From Nitrososphaerota archaeon (GTDB lineage: Archaea > Thermoproteota > Nitrososphaeria_A > Caldarchaeales > Caldarchaeaceae): a stretch of DNA of 64,000 nucleotides. A program made the position numbers and the translations under genes. Shown piece by piece: positions 55,302 to 64,000 of the stretch (positions are counted from its first letter, which is position 1; the number at the start of each line of letters is the position of its first letter). The stretch lies in NCBI GenBank assembly GCA_041641305.1, contig JBEPYN010000001.1, positions 384,001 through 448,000 of the forward strand. Reading direction: 5' to 3'. Under the pieces are notes generated by a model that saw only the letters and a program-made list of their open reading frames with translations, was not told the DNA's origin and made no database searches.

Positions 55302-55841
55302 TCATAGATAGTTGAGCAGAAAGTAGACAAGTACGCCGAGGACAAGGCTTAGGCTCCACAGCCTCACCCCCCATCTACCGACGGCTCTGTGCCTCGTCTT
55401 TTTCCCAACTTCTGCGACTGGTGTAAAAAGCCCGGTTAAGATGTTGTAGAGCACAAGAGGTACGGAGACAATTGAGAGACCGAGATGAATGATGAGAGAG
55501 GGTAGGTAGACAAAATCACGTATTGGCTGTGGGCCTGTGAACTGTTTTACTCCCCCGAGGAAGAGGCGTCCGAGATACATCGTCAAAAAAGCCGTAATTA
55601 GGATGAATGAGGCCAGCATCAGAAGTCTGTGAAGACGGATGTCGCGTCTCCTGATGGCTCTGTAACCCGTGAGAAGAGTGACGACGGCGACTGAGTTGAC
55701 GGCCGCGATAGCATGGGGCAGGATTTCCACGAGCGGTGAAGACGTCGCTGGAAGTTCCCGCGGAGCAAGGAGCAGGTAGCCGAGAACACCGTATGCGGCT
55801 AAAGTTATGACAAGAGTCACGAGCGAAAACCTGCTGAACAC
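55302..55841 (-). CDS. DUF420 membrane protein
   Basis: LPHAIAAVN, HRLLM, LIIHLGLS, HRAVGRW. Confidence 0.85.
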   Translation of the reverse strand: MFSRFSLVTLVITLAAYGVLGYLLLAPRELPATSSPLVEILPHAIAAVNSVAVVTLLTGYRAIRRRDIRLHRLLMLASFILITAFLTMYLGRLFLGGVKQFTGPQPIRDFVYLPSLIIHLGLSIVSVPLVLYNILTGLFTPVAEVGKKTRHRAVGRWGVRLWSLSLVLGVLVYFLLNYL

Positions 55842-56013
55842 ACCTGCTTATACAAGGGTCACAATTTAAAGCTCCGTACTCCGAGCTGACCATCCTCCTC
55901 ATCAAACACTCACACCAGACAAACTATCACCCCAAACATAAACAAAAACACCATAAAAGAAGGGAGAAAAGAGGGGATGGTTGGCTGGCAGGCAACCACC
56001 AACAACACCTAGG

Positions 56014-56104
56014 AAACCCTAAAAGAAGCCGGCACTTTAATTGTGACGGCAAGCCTCTTAAAGAGACTCTTTATTTAATTTGGCATACCGGCTTTTTTGG
56101 GTTT
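56014..56104 (-). ncRNA. Putative dual-guide hairpin RNA (two UGCC-N9-AAAG segments) downstream of the IS110/TasR-like gene
   Basis: Minus strand GCCGGUA-UGCC-AAAUUAAAU-AAAG-AGUCUCU-UUA-AGAGGCU-UGCC-GUCACAAUU-AAAG-UGCCGGC; both stem mismatches become G.U only on the minus strand. Confidence 0.6.
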
Positions 56105-57069
56105 TATCCCTGTTGTTGGGCCGGTATGCCTGCCAGCTTCTGGGTTTCCTGTCTGATGGTCGTCCAGATTGTTTTTAGTAGTTCTTGTTGTTGTTTTCCT
56201 TGTTGTTCTGTTCCATGTATTGCTCTTGCTAGTCTGGTTAAGGCGTGTCGTGTCTCATGGTTGTATTGTTTGTATCGTTTATTATCGAAGAGGCGTAGGT
56301 AACGTTTGAGCTTCATGAAGCCTCTTGAGAAGTCGACATAGGTCAACAATTCAGCCAAAGCCTCCCTAGCCATCACATGGTTGTCTCTTATTCCGAGTAT
56401 GTCTGCGATTGTTTTGTAGTATGGGTACCTCCTCTCAGCCTCCTCAGCAATAATCTCTGCCAGCTTCCTCATTCTCTCCTCGTTAAACCTTATCTCCTCC
56501 CTCAGTATCCTTCTCTCCATCTCTGATACTGCCTTAGACATGTTGAGCAGTCTCTGATGAGTTTTTAGGAGACTCCGGAAGGCAGCTATCATCCTCCTCA
56601 TTATGAGGAAGTCTTCATCCACCCTACGGAACCACTTATCACCAATAGCCATCAGAACCCTGATGTCAGATTTCGCGGACTTGGATTTTATGTTCAGCCT
56701 CTGCCTCACCGCCTCAATCATGCTTAGTCTCCGCAGATAGTAGACCTCTGCGCCTCTCCTCAGAAGCTCCATGAAACCATCTGTGTGGATTATTGGGATG
56801 GTGTCGACGAATACCTTGTCTCCCGGACCCACAGGAATCTCCGAAGGAGAATCAACATGCCTAAAGTTTTCGCCATCAGTTGTGTATGTTATCCTGTATC
56901 CGCTGTCGTCTTTCTTACGGTGGATGTCGGCGTAGAACCTTTTTACACCTTCTGCGCCCACGCCCTTGTCGCCCACCGCCGGGCCAGCGGCGGACGCCCC
57001 CGAATCATCAATCAGCCTCTCGGGAGCGGAGTCCGACTGGGAAGACGCGGAGGACATAATCCTCCCCAT
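56104..57069 (-). CDS. Divergent IS110/TasR-like protein (RuvC-like domain, coiled coil, Nop/HhH-like C-terminus); start uncertain
   Basis: FYADIH / VFVDT / KSAKSDIRVL resemble IS110 DEDD motifs; ILGI...ALAELL...F...LKRYLRL...YNHETRHAL resembles the IS110 C-terminal domain without the SG loop. Confidence 0.55.
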   Translation of the reverse strand: MGRIMSSASSQSDSAPERLIDDSGASAAGPAVGDKGVGAEGVKRFYADIHRKKDDSGYRITYTTDGENFRHVDSPSEIPVGPGDKVFVDTIPIIHTDGFMELLRRGAEVYYLRRLSMIEAVRQRLNIKSKSAKSDIRVLMAIGDKWFRRVDEDFLIMRRMIAAFRSLLKTHQRLLNMSKAVSEMERRILREEIRFNEERMRKLAEIIAEEAERRYPYYKTIADILGIRDNHVMAREALAELLTYVDFSRGFMKLKRYLRLFDNKRYKQYNHETRHALTRLARAIHGTEQQGKQQQELLKTIWTTIRQETQKLAGIPAQQQG

Positions 57070-57812
57070 ATGGTTGTTGGGGAGGCGGGCTCATGAAGCC
57101 CGGGAGCTCCGTGTCTACCCAGCCGCCCCGCTGTGACTAGGTCCCCAAAGGAGGCATTATTCCTCCGAGAATCATCGTGAACACCTATGTCTCCGCCAAA
57201 GGGCTTTGGAGCCGCTCCCACCAAGCGCCCCCATGGCGCCGTGATGAGAGAACCCGTGGAGGAGACACCATGCCTCCCCCACGGAAAACAGGCTCCAAAA
57301 ACCCTTGGCGAAGCATCTGAACAATCGTCTGACTATCTTCTGTCCTGTCCATGGTGTCTAGGGGGTGGTGTAGTCATGCGTAGCACGGCCTACACACCCC
57401 GCGATGCCGACCATGCGTAGCACGAGAAGGCATGCTTTGTCAAGACACCTGGACAGGCCTCAGCCGCATCGGCTCCGCCCCCGGCTCCGTCATGCGTAGC
57501 ACGGCCGGAGCCTTTCCCATCCCATGCATCCCGGAGAAGCCTGTCATGCGTAGCACGGCCAGACAACTCCACAGAGACACCCGTCATGCATGGCACGGCC
57601 GGGTGTCTGGGGCGGCGGACGCATGGGCTGGAGCGGAGCCGGAAGCCAGCCAACCACCCCCGCCACCCCACAAAGAATAATCAATGGGGTGGCCGCCTTG
57701 TTTCAGGCGGGTTAAGGGTGGCTGGTTCTTTTGTTTTCCCTCCTCTGCTTCTGTTTCATTGAACCCTTTTTTGGGTTCTCTGCTGTCGACTCCGCGAAGA
57801 TGTCTTCGCGAA
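57061..57812 (-). ncRNA. Putative large structured non-coding RNA/leader with five motif-capped hairpins
   Basis: Dense nested inverted repeats; GTCATGCGTAGCACGGCC-type motif five times on different stems. Confidence 0.5.
57373..57600. repeat. Five copies of an 18-bp motif GTCATGCGTAGCACGGCC (3 exact, 2 variant)
   Basis: Copies at 57373, 57412 (13-nt core), 57489, 57543 and 57583 (variant loop). Confidence 0.9.
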
Positions 57813-57862
57813 GTCCCATACCCTATCGAATGTGGTAGTGCTGGAGGCTTTTCTCCTTTTTT

Positions 57863-58447
57863 GTGGAATCTTTGTTTCCACCCTCTCTGGGAGTATATGT
57901 TTTTGTGATGGTTTCTCCGTTTTTTCATGGGTTTATGGGTTCTGGTGGGCGTGTTGGGGCAGCGTGTCTCCTACTCCTCATATACCTCTCCCTTAAGGGC
58001 TGGTCTCTGAGACGGCTGATATCTCGCCTGACACGGAATCCGAAGCGCCGCTATGCTAGGGTCCAGTTTAGGGAGCTTGCCGGTGAAATTGGGGTATCAC
58101 ATACACGTGTCAGGGGATGTGTGGATGAGCTTGTCGACGCAGAGTTTCTGGAGATCCGCCGTGAGGGTGAGGAGATATACATCATGGTTACTCGTAAGGG
58201 TGAGAGGCTTTCCTCAACGGCGACGAACTCAAACCTCATACTCCTGATATCCATAGCCCTCTACCTCTCAACGCTGTATAGCGTAGCCATCACGGCGAAC
58301 CTTGTCCTAGGAAAACCCATCGAACCCTATACAGGGCTCCCGTTAATAGTGGCGCTACTCACCACCTTCGTAATAGCCCTACCCAGACTCTACACAACCC
58401 TCCTACTAAGAAACCTAAGAAAAGCGTTAACAGGGCAGGAAAGATAG
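57863..58447 (+). CDS. Winged-helix protein with transmembrane helices; start uncertain
   Basis: FRELAGEIGVSHTRVRGCVDELVDAEFL...VTRKG wHTH followed by two hydrophobic segments. Confidence 0.55.
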   Translation: MESLFPPSLGVYVFVMVSPFFHGFMGSGGRVGAACLLLLIYLSLKGWSLRRLISRLTRNPKRRYARVQFRELAGEIGVSHTRVRGCVDELVDAEFLEIRREGEEIYIMVTRKGERLSSTATNSNLILLISIALYLSTLYSVAITANLVLGKPIEPYTGLPLIVALLTTFVIALPRLYTTLLLRNLRKALTGQER

Positions 58448-58721
58448 AGAGTATCCAACCACACCACATGATGAGGACAACGGGGCAGGGGATGCAAACA
58501 GCGACAGAAAAACCATCGCTCTTAATCCGATTTTTGTGGGTTTGTTTATTGCCTGGTGTTTATATGCTACATAGGTTTGGCTGTATCACTCACCTTAGAT
58601 GGGGAGGGCCTGGTTGGGCTTTTTAAGGAGGTTAGGTGGTCTATCTTGTCCTTTGTGGGAGGGTTTGGAGGCATGGTGGGTACGTGGATCGCAGGGGACA
58701 GGTATGGGAGTAGTTGGAGGT

Positions 58722-59528
58722 CTATGGGTGGGAGAAGGCTACGCGGTATATCAGTTTTCCGAATGGTGTGAGTTCGTATTTTTGTCCTGTGTCTTTGATT
58801 AGTAGGAGGTCTTCGGCCATGGCTTCTGCTACGTCTTTTCCGTATCTTTTCTCGAATTCGTTTTTCTCTATTGCGTTGGGTTGGATTAGGTCTTGGAGGG
58901 CTGAGCGGTATTTTTGGTCGAGGATTTCGGATTTCCAGTCTATGGGTAAGGGGGGTAGGGTGATTGTTGTTTTGAAGGTTTCGTGTCGGTAGTATACTGG
59001 TTTTCGCATTATGAAGGAGACGAGGCTGAGGGCTGTGCCTTCGGGTTTGAACCCTCCAGTGGCGTTTAGAAGCACTCTTTCTCCTTCGTGTTTTTTGATC
59101 AGGTCATAGGTTTTGAGGAGTAGGTTTTGAAGGCCTTTCTCATTGAATTCCTGCTCTGTTTGGAACCCTTCTATCCTGTGTTTTTTGGTGTTTATGCCTT
59201 TTTCCCAGAAGTATCGCTGGAGTGCGTTTGCGCATACCTCTCCAACCTCTGTGTCTGTGTGGAGTAGGTGAACTGTGTCAACTTTCCCTTTTTGTATGTA
59301 TTCTGAGATGGAGCTGAGTTCTGCGCTCGCTTCATGCCCCTTGTTTCTTATGTAGGTTAAGAGTTCTTCCACCACTTTTTCCTTGTTTATCTCATGTTTT
59401 TTTAGGGCGTTTTCCACGTCAAGCTGTCCTTGGAGGCTTGGCGGCAGGGTGGGGAGCTGTTTTTCCCGTAGTGCGTTGTTGAGGAGGCTGGCTCCCACGG
59501 TAACGATGTGAACGTATCTTTTGGGCAT
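58722..59528 (-). CDS. CRISPR-associated CARF protein, APE2256 family (putative Crn1-type ring nuclease)
   Basis: TVGASLLNN, LLHTDTEVG, LNATGGFKPE, VYYRHETF; C-terminal wHTH (LTPFG); next to the array. Confidence 0.85.
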   Translation of the reverse strand: MPKRYVHIVTVGASLLNNALREKQLPTLPPSLQGQLDVENALKKHEINKEKVVEELLTYIRNKGHEASAELSSISEYIQKGKVDTVHLLHTDTEVGEVCANALQRYFWEKGINTKKHRIEGFQTEQEFNEKGLQNLLLKTYDLIKKHEGERVLLNATGGFKPEGTALSLVSFIMRKPVYYRHETFKTTITLPPLPIDWKSEILDQKYRSALQDLIQPNAIEKNEFEKRYGKDVAEAMAEDLLLIKDTGQKYELTPFGKLIYRVAFSHP

Positions 59529-59690
59529 TTCGGACGCCGTAAGAGTATGTGCTGTTTAGATAAAAAAGTTTCTGTTCGCAGGGCTCGGGTTGCCGCCAAT
59601 GTATGGTGCTGTGTTTAGAACTTGTTGTTTTGTTAAGGTTCTCCATCTTCTCTTTTTCATCGAGGGGCCAGTAGTGAGAGCATGCCTCTC

Positions 59691-60784
59691 ATCTCCATCC
59701 TCCTTTCATTGACAGTTGAGCAAGGTCGTTTCCCTGCATAAGTCTTTGAATACTCAGCTTTCCATCCTCTTTTCATTGACAGTTTATTAGTGCATGTGTT
59801 GGGGGGTGTTTTGTGCATGCAGTCTTTCCATCCTCTTTTCATTGACAGCTAAGCGTCGGCGGCATCATCAAAAAATTCTTCATAAACTTTCCATCCTCTT
59901 TTCATTGACAGTGGTCGAGGCGGACAAGCGGTTTTCCAATTTATTCTATATGCTTTCCATCCTCTTTTCATTGACAGTGCATCTCGACCCCGTTGACTTT
60001 AGCGGCATTCCTCGGGACATCTTTCCATCCTCTTTTCATTGACAGACACCACTTAAACAACCACACATATTTATCCAAAGTAAAAATCTTTCCATCCTCT
60101 TTTCATTGACAGCGACATATTTGCCAAGCTGCTGGAGCCAGATACACGCCTTTCCATCCTCTTTTCATTGACAGTTCGGTCCGCTGGCTCTCAGCTTCCA
60201 GTTGGGGCAGGTGATCTTTCCATCCTCTTTTCATTGACAGTGAAAATGTACATGGAGTATGAGGCGGAGCATGAAACAGACGCTTTCCATCCTCTTTTCA
60301 TTGACAGAGACTTGATGATAGTCTCCGACGTTGGGTTCTCTTTTTCCAGCTTTCCATCCTCTTTTCATTGACAGTCACGTGTCTATAGAGTTTGACGGCA
60401 GGCGCTATTGTGTTACGCTTACTCGCTTTCCATCCTCTTTTCATTGACAGAAGAAGTTCATAAGTTGCCTCCTGGGACAAGAGTTCATAGACTTTCCATC
60501 CTCTTTTCATTGACAGACGAAGGATGTGGCCGCGTTTCTTGGAAAAAGCCAGCAGTCTTTCCATCCTCTTTTCATTGACAGAAATATATGAAACACGCAA
60601 AGGATACCACATAATTGCTTACTTTCCATCCTCTTTTCATTGACAGTGGGACATAGAGAACTACCCCGCTCTCGACGTTATGCTGAACGCTTTCCATCCT
60701 CTTTTCATTGACAGGACGTCGAGGTTCGGAGAGTTCCGTGTGGTGCAGATTAAGAAGGACTTTCCATCCTCTTTTCATTGACAG
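59691..60784 (-). CRISPR. CRISPR array: 16 exact 25-bp repeats CTGTCAATGAAAAGAGGATGGAAAG plus 1 degenerate repeat; 16 spacers of 37-51 bp; further remnant near 59640-59664
   Basis: Counted directly; degenerate copies at the low-coordinate end and the GAAAG 3' end give minus orientation. Confidence 0.97.
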
Positions 60785-60959
60785 GTGTGCCTGATTCCCG
60801 GAAATTTAGGCGAATCGGGCGGTTTTGTCGAGTGGGTCTTTCAGGCGACGAATTTTTGGAGCCTCTATATTAATGTTAGCCGGAAATCCTCGAAGGTTCA
60901 GCGATAGCCGTCGGTAATGGGCCCATCAAAAATGAGAGAATAAAGGAAAACTTTTGACA
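60785..60959 (-). promoter_or_regulatory. CRISPR leader
   Basis: Non-coding, adjoins the intact end of the array; AT-rich ATTAATATAG (minus) near 60864-60873. Confidence 0.7.
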
Positions 60960-62084
60960 TCACCTCCTGAAACTCAGCTTAACCCACCCGAGGGGGCTTG
61001 GCTCGCCGTCCGCCCCTTCCTGCACTAGACGCATAGACGACGGAAAACTCCGAGGGGCCGCCTGACTAAACCTCCTCGAACCTAACGCCCTAAACACCTG
61101 ACCCTCCAGATTTTCAAAGGCCATCGTAACCGTAGTCTTCCAATAACCCTGCCCATAGCCCAAGCTGGTCACAGCCTCCAGCTCACCAACCTTAGAAACC
61201 TCATCCAACAGAGAATCCAACCGTCTCCGAACACTCCCCGAAACATTCCCACCACCCAGCCTAACCAAATCCCTTTGCAGAACAGCCCGAGACCTCTCGT
61301 TAGCCATCTTCACCAAATCACTGACCAACGTCCCAACCATATCCTTCCTCGCAACCTTCTCCGAAACCTTTTGAACCATGAATACATGCAGGCCTCCGCG
61401 AAAAACCGTTCCCGAGGGAACCACCTCAACAAAGCCTAACCGCCTCTGACCAGAACCCCCAAACCTCATGCTAAGAAGCCGCGCCACACAAGTCTCCACC
61501 TCAGCCTCTGGAAACAAGTCAGATGGTCTCAGAAGCCGCAACAAATCACTCTCGAAAGAATGAGTATCCCGCCTAAGAACACTCTCCACCACAGCACCTT
61601 TCCCCTTTCTTTCCTGCTTAATTTCCTCCAACAACTTTCCGGCCAAACCTGAGTTACTCTTCAAAATCCCATATATCAGAGAAGTCCTGAGCGAGCCCTT
61701 CAGACTGCTCCCCGGCAGATACACCGACCCCTCAAGCGTTCTAATGAAAGGCATCAACTCAGAGCTGAAACTGTCATCACGCAAATGGTCCCGGAACCTT
61801 ATCCTGTATCTCGCCACCTTTTCAGCGAAGCGCTGCACGTCAACACCGTTATTCCTAAGGAACAGGGTGAGAGAAAAGTGTCCTGACTCCAGCTCCCTTA
61901 GATACATGTTCACAAGCCGATTTTTTTCCAGTTCTTGGAAAAGTTTGTCATGGTCCACCACGTAAAGCCAGCCGCCATGGTGTATGTAATCGACGCCGGT
62001 CAACCTCTCGTTCATTCCCACGTGAATAGGAGTTAGGGCCTGGACACGAATCTCGTAAACCTCAACCTGTGACAGCCGAGGCAT
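60960..62084 (-). CDS. csm5: Type III-A RAMP Csm5
   Basis: LTPIHVG, YLPGSSLKGSLRT, LGYGQG, PLGWVKL. Confidence 0.9.
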   Translation of the reverse strand: MPRLSQVEVYEIRVQALTPIHVGMNERLTGVDYIHHGGWLYVVDHDKLFQELEKNRLVNMYLRELESGHFSLTLFLRNNGVDVQRFAEKVARYRIRFRDHLRDDSFSSELMPFIRTLEGSVYLPGSSLKGSLRTSLIYGILKSNSGLAGKLLEEIKQERKGKGAVVESVLRRDTHSFESDLLRLLRPSDLFPEAEVETCVARLLSMRFGGSGQRRLGFVEVVPSGTVFRGGLHVFMVQKVSEKVARKDMVGTLVSDLVKMANERSRAVLQRDLVRLGGGNVSGSVRRRLDSLLDEVSKVGELEAVTSLGYGQGYWKTTVTMAFENLEGQVFRALGSRRFSQAAPRSFPSSMRLVQEGADGEPSPLGWVKLSFRR

Positions 62085-63060
62085 CCATCATCACCGGAAA
62101 AGCATACCCATAACGGTATACGCCGCCGTATACATGCAACATACGCCCAAAGACTCGCTTACCACCGAACGCGGGAAAAACAGAACCCTCCTCGAAAACA
62201 TAACATCTAAACCTCCCAACCCCAGAGTACATCGCAGTCCTCTCAACAACAACATAGCCAAGACCATCTCCAAAACTTTGTATCACTTGGGCTTCATCCC
62301 TAGTCGGAGAATATGGAGAAAGTGTGTAAAAGAGGCCGCCGCTGTCGCGCAAAAATTCGTCGTCCCGAATTATGAGCGGCTCTCCCTCAGATACGCCTAA
62401 ACCAATCGACCTCTCACCACCTACCCCGAGTTCCGCAACAGCCCTGAAGGACGCTAAGAAACGACTATCCTCATCAAACATTCTCAACCAAAAAGCTAGG
62501 CCACAGCCCTCTCCAAGCTCCACCGCAGCGGACCTGAAGAGCTGGGTTCTCATGCTTAGTCTATCCAACACCACCCTCCTACTCTTCACAAGCCTGTGGC
62601 CAGGAATCATCCCCTCCTCGGAACTCAGCGCCAAAACACCCTCTACAATCCTCAACTCCTCCAAGGTCCCTGCGATAAGCCTGGAGACAGCCTCTACAGT
62701 CCCGAAAACCACTCTCTGCGCCAGCTTAGCGGCCTTCCCCTCATCACTTTCCAACCTTTTCGCTACATCAAATAGCCGAGCTCTCAGCCTGGGCATCCGC
62801 GGCACAGGTATCAAAACACTTACCATACCTTTCACCCTCTTCGCAGGGAACATGGATGAGACGAGGAAAGACGGAGCACCGTTAACGAAACGCGACAGAA
62901 GAGACTTCAGCTCATCCCCACCGTAAAGCAGGGAGTAGGCCCAGCAAAAAGCTCCGAACAACGTATCCGCCCCCACGATAACCCGGTAGTCCTCCATAGA
63001 AGGGCCGGAACCGGCTCTATAACTTCTTACGGGGAGGAAAACTAGGAGAGCGTCTGACAC
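62062..63060 (-). CDS. csm4: Type III-A RAMP Csm4
   Basis: ADTLFGA, VSSMFP, GVGGERSIGLG, EEGSVF, YRYGYAF. Confidence 0.9.
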   Translation of the reverse strand: MSDALLVFLPVRSYRAGSGPSMEDYRVIVGADTLFGAFCWAYSLLYGGDELKSLLSRFVNGAPSFLVSSMFPAKRVKGMVSVLIPVPRMPRLRARLFDVAKRLESDEGKAAKLAQRVVFGTVEAVSRLIAGTLEELRIVEGVLALSSEEGMIPGHRLVKSRRVVLDRLSMRTQLFRSAAVELGEGCGLAFWLRMFDEDSRFLASFRAVAELGVGGERSIGLGVSEGEPLIIRDDEFLRDSGGLFYTLSPYSPTRDEAQVIQSFGDGLGYVVVERTAMYSGVGRFRCYVFEEGSVFPAFGGKRVFGRMLHVYGGVYRYGYAFPVMMDASAVTG

Positions 63061-63066
63061 AAACTC

Positions 63067-63903
63067 TCACTTGCTATTAATTTTTAAGAATTGCATTATC
63101 TGGGACTTGACATCTTCAATATTCGTAAGAACATCGTCAACCGTTTCATAATATCCTTCAGCGGGTATTTTCATGACCCCGTCTTTCGGGTTGCTGAAGT
63201 GGTTTGGTGAAATAACCTTAAACACGATATTCTTGAACTTAATCCTGCCATAACCTCTTGAGCCATAGCCCCCCAAGTAATCCTCTTCGACGAGCTTCAT
63301 CGCCTCAAAGACTATCTTAAAACGTTCCACATCCCTTTTCCCATTGTTTCCTTCTCCGTCGAAGACGAGGTACGACATGTTAACCTCGAACTCAGAATCT
63401 TTGGGAATCCTCTCCACCCACCTCGGGTTCGCCTTGCTAGTCAGTCTATCCAGCGCGTTCTCCCCCTTTACCTCGATCGAGCCAAATACCCTCCACCTAT
63501 TTCTCGTCTGATCTGTTGCATATGAGTCGCTGACTCTCAAACGAGTAAGCGATAAGATGTTTTGAACCTCGCCCGACTCCTGACTCTGTTGCTTTTCAAC
63601 CAACTCGGGCTGCCTCCCAAAAACTATGCAAACATCGCAATCGATATTGTCGCATAGGTGAATGCTCATTTTGAGCTTGGTGCTGAGGGGTAGATCCCTG
63701 TAAAGCTCATACTTTGACCTCATCGCGCCCTTCAGTGAGGAACCGGGGATATACGGCTCCTGAGTGAACGGGTCCTTTATCACAACGTTCTCCACACCAC
63801 CTATTTCGGTGCCTCCGGGAGTTCCACCGATCCTAAGCCCAGTTAGACAGGACAACAAAGCATTTACCTTAATGAAACCAGCAATCCTAACCATACCTTT
63901 CAC
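63067..63903 (-). CDS. csm3: Type III-A RAMP Csm3 (start may be 63894)
   Basis: TGLRIGG, PYIPGSSLKGAMRS, YLGGYGSRGYG. Confidence 0.93.
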   Translation of the reverse strand: MKGMVRIAGFIKVNALLSCLTGLRIGGTPGGTEIGGVENVVIKDPFTQEPYIPGSSLKGAMRSKYELYRDLPLSTKLKMSIHLCDNIDCDVCIVFGRQPELVEKQQSQESGEVQNILSLTRLRVSDSYATDQTRNRWRVFGSIEVKGENALDRLTSKANPRWVERIPKDSEFEVNMSYLVFDGEGNNGKRDVERFKIVFEAMKLVEEDYLGGYGSRGYGRIKFKNIVFKVISPNHFSNPKDGVMKIPAEGYYETVDDVLTNIEDVKSQIMQFLKINSK

Positions 63904-64000
63904 GCTCCATCTCTTTTATGAAGTTGTAGTAGGCGATTATGGATTCAGAGACGTTGAAGACCAGCTCTATATACTTGTGCGGCTCTGGCGAATCCATCAA
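63887..64000 (-). CDS. csm2: Csm2 small subunit, C-terminal 37 aa (truncated by the window edge)
   Basis: Manual translation ...VFNVSESIIAYYNFIKEMERERYG* resembles the Csm2 E-x-I-x-A-Y motif; lies upstream of csm3. Confidence 0.7.
   Translation of the reverse strand: MMDSPEPHKYIELVFNVSESIIAYYNFIKEMERERYG

Follow-up and report, generated by a model that had tools for sequence, protein, structure and literature searches.

What does a gene for an IS110/TasR-like protein do when a hairpin with two different 9-nt guides directly follows its stop codon? We asked this of a locus in a stretch of 64,000 nt (the window; positions 384,001-448,000 of the forward strand of contig JBEPYN010000001.1, assembly GCA_041641305.1) from a Nitrososphaerota archaeon, where the gene encodes a protein of 321 aa, P0001. 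We found that each of the two 9-mers spells one half of the site at which their own element is inserted. Gene and RNA thus sit at one end of a mobile insert of 14.7 kb that carries CRISPR-Cas genes, and together they are probably the targeting and mobility module of an RNA-guided, serine-less mobile element of Caldarchaeales. The window genome (G000; 1.66 Mb in four contigs, 99.3% complete) was compared with its closest complete relative, G009, from the same genus (a single contig of 1,680,938 bp), and with two environmental datasets, an independent hot-spring DNA metagenome (X11) and a metatranscriptome (X10). Loci of the family carry L numbers (L002, L003 and L004 in G000, L101 and L103-L106 in G009).

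The two guides spell an interrupted insertion site

G009 is collinear with the window up to position 55869 and then matches DNA that lies 14,668 bp further along in G000. At this joint G009 has, on the gene strand, an intact 15-nt site, AAATTAAATTGTGAC, which is guide 1 followed by the reverse complement of guide 2 with an overlap of 3 nt. In G000 the two halves of the site are found at opposite ends of the insert, and TTAAAT is present at both junctions. Guide 1 occurs exactly only twice in the 1.66-Mb genome, in the loop and at the far junction (C1:454532-454540), while the exact reverse-complement match of guide 2 (the right half-site in table 1) lies 173 nt downstream of its position in the loop. 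A contig of X11 joins the same two points and skips the 14,668 nt, with 6 nt that fit either side. No joint of a circular junction was listed among the metagenome and metatranscriptome contigs.

The half-site in the window resembles a TATA box and lies about 27 nt upstream of a GTG, the start codon of the next gene, which encodes a membrane protein (ORF 55302-55841, minus strand; ORF, open reading frame). The last base of the element and the core rebuild TTTAAA, and the cores of other copies (TATAAA, TTTAA, TTAAAT) likewise resemble archaeal TATA boxes.

AT-rich, promoter-like half-sites at such a distance from a gene start would also suit a domesticated RNA-guided DNA binder or repressor, or a TIGR-Tas-like defence nuclease, with guides that bind neighbouring promoter DNA and a gene that does not move. 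TIGR-Tas repressors have been described (bioRxiv 10.64898/2026.09.09.750476), and the cargo consists of defence genes. However, the places matched by the guides lie on either side of the element, and in relatives without it they meet at that very point as a single site. The family is multi-copy, with decayed copies and positions at contig ends as is typical of insertion sequences, and we saw neither a guide that matches foreign DNA nor an array. We consider an immobile binder or defence nuclease very unlikely.

Empty sites at other loci follow the same rule

Five further empty sites, besides that of the window copy, were found across G000 and G009. For L004, G009 keeps an intact 16-nt site composed of guide 2 and the reverse complement of guide 1, and the homology of the flank begins exactly there. 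Because this site reads guide 2 and then guide 1, the element can sit in either orientation. In the reverse comparison, the G009 copies L101, L103, L104 and L106 correspond to uninterrupted sites with homologous flanks in G000, identical at 15/15 positions for L103 and at 15/16 for L101, L104 and L106; for L106 only the left flank is clearly homologous. At L002, flank homology with G009, which has an ortholog with nearly the same guides, stops exactly at the guide-1 match. Both half-sites, 1.5-2.5 kb apart, could be located for L003, L015, L030, L050, L101, L102, L104 and L106. An empty site for L003 was also sought in G009, which is too diverged there to show one.

Loop finders that used the minimum free energy (MFE) or stems alone chose wrong loops, while a finder that also demanded repeated boxes yielded 28 copies; the loops of copies beyond these 28 were read by eye. 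In 15 of the 28, an antisense 9-mer of the copy's own loop was found within 20-720 nt downstream, compared with 0.89 +/- 0.90 copies (maximum 5) when loops were swapped among loci in 2000 trials. In the rebuilt sites the two guide matches stand in tandem, overlapping by 0-3 nt and covering 15-18 bp in total. Every copy with two junctions has 3-8 AT-rich nt at both of them. A fixed symmetric duplication of 4-5 nt, which we considered as a description of these repeats, did not fit L106 and L001.

Empty and occupied sites could also result from the action of an RNA-guided homing nuclease only, which would make a double-strand break in the empty allele and leave homologous recombination to copy the element, with no true transposition. 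The guides recognise the uninterrupted site only, so occupied sites, being split, are protected, and the element shows presence/absence polymorphism in natural populations. The nearest fold of P0001 is also that of a nuclease, TasR, and P0001 has no serine of the recombinase type (see below). Homing would not duplicate target bases, though, yet the short repeat is found at both junctions in every copy where two are known. Dozens of copies lie at unrelated sites with their own matching guides, a colonisation that needs insertion without flanking homology, and both orientations occur. Homing as the sole activity is thus an unlikely explanation: the junction repeats and the many unrelated sites point to insertion rather than homing alone. 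The family's biology is nearer that of an insertion system of the IS110 type than that of a defence nuclease or a repressor.

One conserved hairpin RNA carries both guides

An earlier note on this DNA had described the RNA as UGCC-9-mer-AAAG, written twice around an inner hairpin directly 3' of the stop codon, with stem mismatches that become G.U pairs on the strand of the gene only, and with one guide loop and no array. The letters read exactly so (table 1), and folding both strands bore out the strand preference. On the gene strand, the structure of the guide unit is both the MFE and the centroid structure of a 106-nt fold (-36.9 kcal/mol, z -4.29, with 0 of 200 shuffles as good), whereas the opposite strand, where the U-G stem pairs cannot form, gives a different and poorer structure (-30.3 kcal/mol). 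The unit forms the tip of a rod of 154 nt. The 5' arm of this rod is the end of the coding sequence itself (LAGIPAQQQG-stop; the last 11 codons and the stop), and T-runs follow the 3' arm. Rfam gave no match on the rod, including none to a C/D family. The RNA has one internal loop only, and a search of the 14.7-kb insert found no second box-9-mer-box unit, no match to the element ends and no array of guide units. A donor guide, which would be expected to read GCTTTAAAT and TGTGATATT, was not found in the insert. TRF detected no tandem repeats there, and the arrays returned by a direct-repeat search are ordinary CRISPR arrays.

All four paralogues in G000 have the same rod with differing 9-mers, and the layout is kept in copies from other genomes too. 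RNAalifold analysis of 13 copies from the window's subfamily gave 44 pairs. Compensatory double changes affect 12 of these, spread over the basal and outer stems and the inner hairpin, and several G-U pairs can form on the gene strand only. At least four subfamilies retain this architecture, each with a box pair of its own that stands on both sides of the unit (elsewhere AUGUC/AAAC; GCU/UAA; UGAUG or UGAC with AACG or GACG; GGC/AC). The earlier note had expected fixed UGCC/AAAG boxes around variable 9-mers. The 9-mers do vary, but the boxes are fixed within a lineage only and differ in other subfamilies. The same note would have been contradicted by homologues that lack the hairpin; in the 13 copies, the rod is kept and the 9-mers are less invariant than the boxes. 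The last 3-4 nt of each guide are nearly constant within a lineage, which leaves about 5-6 nt per arm free to vary.

The T-runs after the rod and its position at the 3' end of the gene are what a terminator or an mRNA-stabilising structure would show, in which case the 9-mer matches would have arisen by chance. This most improbable of the readings is already contradicted by the permutation test (15/28 against 0.89), by the restriction of exact guide 1 to the loop and the far junction, and by the covariation of box pairs and stems. In addition, five of the six empty sites hold exact matches to both guides, and the sixth has one mismatch.

P0001 is predicted to share the fold of IS110 recombinases and TasR

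The conserved core of P0001 comprises residues 43-321. Residues 1-42 are a predicted disordered extension common to one subclade; in the window copy the usual ATG is lost and the start lies 42 codons upstream. Database searches with P0001 found no family in Pfam (E up to 1), NCBIfam, PHROGs or PADLOC, no Pfam match to PF01548, PF02371 or PF01798, and nothing useful in the ESM Atlas, and a profile search of PDB sequences with alignment A1 gave chance matches only. An AlphaFold2 model built from a 35-sequence alignment had a pLDDT of 83.4 and a pTM of 0.79. In a Foldseek search of the PDB, the top 13 matches were all to IS621, ISCro4 or TIGR-TasR and covered the full length (E of 2e-5 for TasR, 9mty_A), with retroviral integrase cores far behind. 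VIA-align ranked TasR (9mty_A) first, with Z 15.5 at an rmsd of 3.5 over 239 aligned residues, followed by IS621 and ISCro4 (Z 13.7-13.9), the C-terminal domain of TasH (Z 12-13) and Nop5 (Z 7.2), which matched the C-terminal half only (residues 152-313). P0001 is thus confidently predicted to have the RuvC, coiled-coil and Nop-like fold common to IS110 recombinases and TasR.

P0001 was further predicted to form a symmetric homodimer via the coiled coil (residues 159-206), with an ipSAE of 0.76 compared with 0.03 for the best control; three runs share 100% of the contacts, with a partner pLDDT of at least 83. Among solved homodimers 20 of 30 pass the mark used here, and among single chains 1 of 23 does; since similar complexes have already been solved, the pass may reflect memory or likeness.

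For the comparison of motifs we used those of IS110, GID, E, KxDxxD, IPGIG, P..SG (serine loop S257-G258) and ISKxG, taken from an alignment of three annotated transposases; an hhalign comparison with three IS110 transposases (probability 0.5, not significant) served only to guide the motif order. Three acidic residues are invariant among 35 homologues. D48 lies in strand 1, D89 (VDT) at the position of the IS110 glutamate and D135 in KSAKSD, where A132 occupies the expected place of the first aspartate of KxDxxD; this DEDD assignment follows from motif and secondary-structure register only. The family has LGI where IS110 has IPGI, and YLGLF for WLGLVP. No Ser, Thr or Tyr is invariant in residues 215-321 of the 35 homologues, and the model is all-helical there.

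Much of this had been anticipated. Foldseek and VIA-align support the earlier description of P0001 as an IS110-like protein with a RuvC-like domain, a coiled coil and a C-terminal domain; the altered acidic residues (VDT, KSAKSD) hold in the alignments, and the catalytic SG serine loop, which had been called missing, has no counterpart in them. The comparison with IS621, TasR and Nop5 that the note had proposed gave Z 13.9, 15.5 and 7.2, respectively. The note had the fold and the RNA right; its functional reading, a nuclease or a pure DNA binder, missed the targets of the guides and was incomplete.

A putative mechanism of insertion

In the mechanism that we propose, a P0001 dimer with one RNA would match the two DNA strands of the empty site to one guide each, in the way that the loops of tigRNAs and bridge RNAs pair with both strands. 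The RuvC-like domain (D48, D89, D135) would cut or transfer strands in the AT-rich centre, and the element would be joined there. Each junction would then retain a full 9-nt match to one guide, so the same ribonucleoprotein could pair with both ends for excision. As P0001 has no recombinase serine, the chemistry should differ from that of IS110. We tentatively suggest that the family could represent serine-independent RNA-programmed insertion, in which a RuvC-Nop dimer of about 280-aa subunits and one hairpin RNA with two 9-nt guides would address a 15-18-bp site and, by RNase-H-type chemistry, insert (perhaps also excise) kilobase-scale DNA including whole defence loci. It would then add a third functional branch to those of the IS110 bridge recombinases and the TIGR-Tas nucleases.

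Several observations weigh against insertion by this module. The case is computational, and cleavage, strand transfer and RNA processing are all putative. The P..SG serine loop has no counterpart, the chain passing directly into the last helices, and it is this serine that serves as nucleophile in the only relatives of P0001 known to insert DNA. The insert yielded no loop for donor binding, and the tips of the element show no conservation from copy to copy. Without the serine, a donor loop or conserved tips, the insertion chemistry and the recognition of the donor are not explained mechanistically. The stretches at the junctions do not pin down the true length of the duplication or core; 13 of the 28 copies have no downstream match; and the left junction of L002 is unclear, with only 6 of 9 nt of guide 2 beside the presumed left end. 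The paralogues in G000 are only 59-77% identical, so there is no sign of recent movement in that genome, and many copies elsewhere have in-frame stops. Finally, the 14.7 kb may be a small element enlarged by insertions that it received later, and not a piece that moved as a whole.

Distribution and expression

G000 contains four full paralogues, at 59-77% identity, and one fragment (L005). At least seven family matches are present in G009, and a scan of species-representative genomes added 45 further loci in three assemblies. A single metagenome-assembled genome of Caldarchaeales (G037; L015-L053) has more than 30 copies, many at contig ends. Among 300 genomes sampled across the phylum, the family occurs in 18, all from the window's order and belonging to three of its families; these genomes usually have several copies each, often with in-frame stops. 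At least 565 homologues of P0001, most of about 280 aa, are annotated only as hypothetical proteins (from Ca. Caldarchaeum and hot-spring metagenomes). Canonical IS110 (PF02371) was not found in the window's genus, and a PF02371 search of the whole G000 genome was empty. IS110 copies from the window's order were tried as references and dropped, being fragments only.

A literature search found no paper on a Caldarchaeales IS110/TasR-like family. The paper linking IS110 to Nop5 found no additional family of that architecture, and the papers on TIGR-Tas report arrays, stem-loop ones among them, mainly in phages and in candidate-phyla-radiation (CPR) bacteria, with no single-unit mobile form. A 2026 survey of non-coding RNAs chose bridge RNAs via the Pfam IS110 architecture, a criterion that the Caldarchaeales family fails. 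The family is a new, unpublished variant of Nop-domain RNA-guided systems.

RNA runs were read as contigs, which show presence in the library above neighbours and not transcript ends, strand or processing. In X10, a 963-nt contig identical to the coding sequence has a depth of 181, compared with 2-12 for flanking genes, and a contig over the upstream region with the 18-nt motif has a depth of 139. In a second RNA run, conserved pieces of the basal stem, which are common to paralogues, reach 217-260 versus 4-14 for the coding sequence.

Cargo and anatomy of the element

From the end with the guides, the insert consists of the rod RNA and gene, the region of the 18-nt motif, a 194-aa ORF with no family, a CARF gene, a 17-repeat array, csm genes, a 14-repeat array, cas6 and, at the far end on the other strand, a 104-aa ORF (table 1). 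The second array (14 copies of a 25-nt repeat), Cas10 with palm and HD domains and Cas6 (Pfam CRISPR_Cas6) lie beyond the end of the window. A full type III-A CRISPR-Cas locus lies within the insert (window 58722-64000, continuing past its end; L064 2923-13246), with no cas1 or cas2 among ORFs of at least 100 aa and no other integrase or transposase among the 10 cargo ORFs scanned.

Table 1. Features of the window copy and its insert (window coordinates unless stated).
Feature	Position	Strand	Basis or remark
IS110/TasR-like gene, 321 aa (P0001)	56104..57069	-	ORF; stop TAA 56106-56104
Guide unit	56026..56094	-	outer stem, box, guide 1, box, inner hairpin, box, guide 2, box, outer stem
Outer stem, first arm	56094-56086	-	sequence reading
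UGCC box, first	56085-56082	-	sequence reading
Guide 1, AAAUUAAAU	56073..56081	-	same as gene-strand sequence of left half of insertion site
AAAG box, first	56072-56069	-	sequence reading
Inner hairpin, 17 nt	56068-56052	-	sequence reading
UGCC box, second	56051-56048	-	sequence reading
Guide 2, GUCACAAUU	56039..56047	-	complementary to gene strand of right half of insertion site
AAAG box, second	56038-56035	-	sequence reading
Outer stem, second arm	56034-56026	-	sequence reading
Rod-like structured RNA, 154 nt	55984..56137	-	-79.5 kcal/mol, z -6.89 (201-nt fold); conserved in 13 copies
Right half-site	55858-55866		exact guide 2 match
6-nt core ATTTAA (+ strand)	55864-55869		host ends 55869, insert starts 55870
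Insert, 14,668 bp	55870 to 70537 (G000 C1:439870-454537)		part in window 55870..64000; absent from G009
Five copies of 18-nt motif GGCCGUGCUACGCAUGAC	57373..57600, within 57168-57709	-	upstream of gene
CARF-type Cas_APE2256	58722..59528	-	Pfam E 9.9e-33
CRISPR array, 17 copies of 25-nt repeat	59686..60786		direct-repeat search
Type III-A Csm genes (RAMP proteins, Csm2)	60960..64000	-	Pfam RAMPs, Csm2_III-A
Small ORF P0227, 104 aa	L064 14400-14714 (G000 C1:454199-454510), outside window	opposite strand	CxxC...CPxH pattern, basic tail

The copies of the 18-nt motif are spaced irregularly, by 37-79 nt. The 556-bp region that holds them has no Rfam match; its counterpart upstream of L002 has 89.6% identity to it, and L003 and L004 lack it.

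Small ORFs of the P0227 type recur in other copies. One marks the left end of L003 (75% identity), others lie upstream of L016 and L011 (both HR02 copies), one is part of fragment L005 and one is placed 14.5 kb upstream of L002. P0227, which is zinc-ribbon-like, has no family in Pfam, PHROGs or PADLOC, with nothing useful from NCBIfam or the ESM Atlas, and is a candidate accessory or end-binding protein. The recurrence of the small ORF across copies suggests that the core element consists of this ORF, the IS110/TasR-like gene and the guide RNA, with cargo between the genes; in some copies the two end genes lie 14-16 kb apart. In the stretch that separates the L002 gene from its presumed small ORF (L095; G000 C1:515400-531800) we noticed GmrSD, an Eco57I/MmeI-type methyltransferase, an SNF2/PLD helicase, a PolB-exonuclease-like protein and a thioredoxin-fold protein, and this stretch appears to be a second family element with defence cargo. 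A relative, P0011, has ResIII, Mrr and a DEAD helicase upstream and a guide-2 match 195 nt downstream.

Three further observations concern the make-up of other copies. The rebuilt target of L105 (G009 C1:1081500-1088400) resembles the conserved stretch coding for FIDLWVED in the small ORF of another element (G000 C2:348223), so that L105 could, from the similarity of the letters, be an insertion of one element into another. In L004, a 480-bp segment (2515-2993) between the rod and the right junction recurs in G009, 92% identical at C1:824066-824544 and 84% identical at 129721-130135, just downstream of a family copy; it could be a 3' module that the element may have or lack, or else a repeat in its own right. 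The G037 copies have a conserved module of about 90 nt upstream of the gene, which also occurs alone and at variable distance (for example L015 2865-2955, and several copies in L022 and L031).

Comparison with known systems

Of the two known RNA-guided systems that are built around a Nop-like domain, one, IS110, inserts DNA by means of a serine recombinase and a bridge RNA with two loops (IS621, ISCro4; PDB 8WT6, 8WT9, 9T56; PMC11208160, PMC11208158). The Caldarchaeales family resembles IS110/IS1111 in overall fold (RuvC-like domain, coiled coil and helical RNA-binding domain; Z 13.7-13.9) and IS1111 in having its RNA encoded beside the gene, on the 3' side. As in IS110, the two sides of the internal loop pair with opposite target strands around a central core, and the element, present in multiple copies, lies between two half-sites with the core at both junctions. 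In contrast to IS110, the protein has no PF01548 or PF02371 signal, the P..SG serine loop is missing and an alanine replaces the first aspartate of KxDxxD. There is one loop instead of the target and donor loops of the bridge RNA. The core is AT-rich, of 3-8 nt and not fixed, either orientation occurs and some copies reach 14-16 kb.

The other, TIGR-Tas, uses dual-guide arrays and cuts or binds DNA (PDB 9MTY; Faure et al. 2025, PMC12045711). TasR is the best structural match of P0001, and it too is serine-less, with a RuvC and a Nop-like domain. The RNA is laid out as a TIGR unit is: the two strands of a stem enclose spacers A and B, each spacer has a box on either side, and a loop lies between the two halves. 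Its spacers are about 9 nt long, the boxes of one half covary with those of the other (four subfamilies) and the spacers address opposite DNA strands in tandem. However, a single unit is fused to the end of the gene, whereas TIGR arrays have 5-15 units, and the boxes are UGYC/AAAS (or GCU/UAA and others) and not the CCA/UG of TasR. The guides match the element's own insertion site instead of foreign DNA, and the gene-plus-RNA module is itself dispersed in many copies. Among the genomes sampled the family was found in Caldarchaeales only, with no phage or CPR link seen.

Archaeal box C/D small ribonucleoproteins (Nop5, L7Ae, fibrillarin; PDB 3PLA) share with the family a Nop-like C-terminal domain, a coiled-coil dimer and a bipartite symmetric RNA with two guides between box pairs. 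They differ in that the family RNA has no RUGAUGA/CUGA boxes or K-turn and the protein no PF01798 match, that the guides match DNA junctions and not ribosomal RNA, and that RuvC-like acidic residues are invariant.

The family thus lives as an insertion sequence does, with a serine-less protein of the TasR type and one guide unit of the TIGR type. If the protein does insert DNA, about 280 aa and about 150 nt of RNA would make a very compact tool for programmable insertion, with new chemistry, and the family would show how defence islands move between archaeal strains. An evolutionary path connecting TasA/TasR, IS110 and box C/D ribonucleoproteins would then become directly testable.

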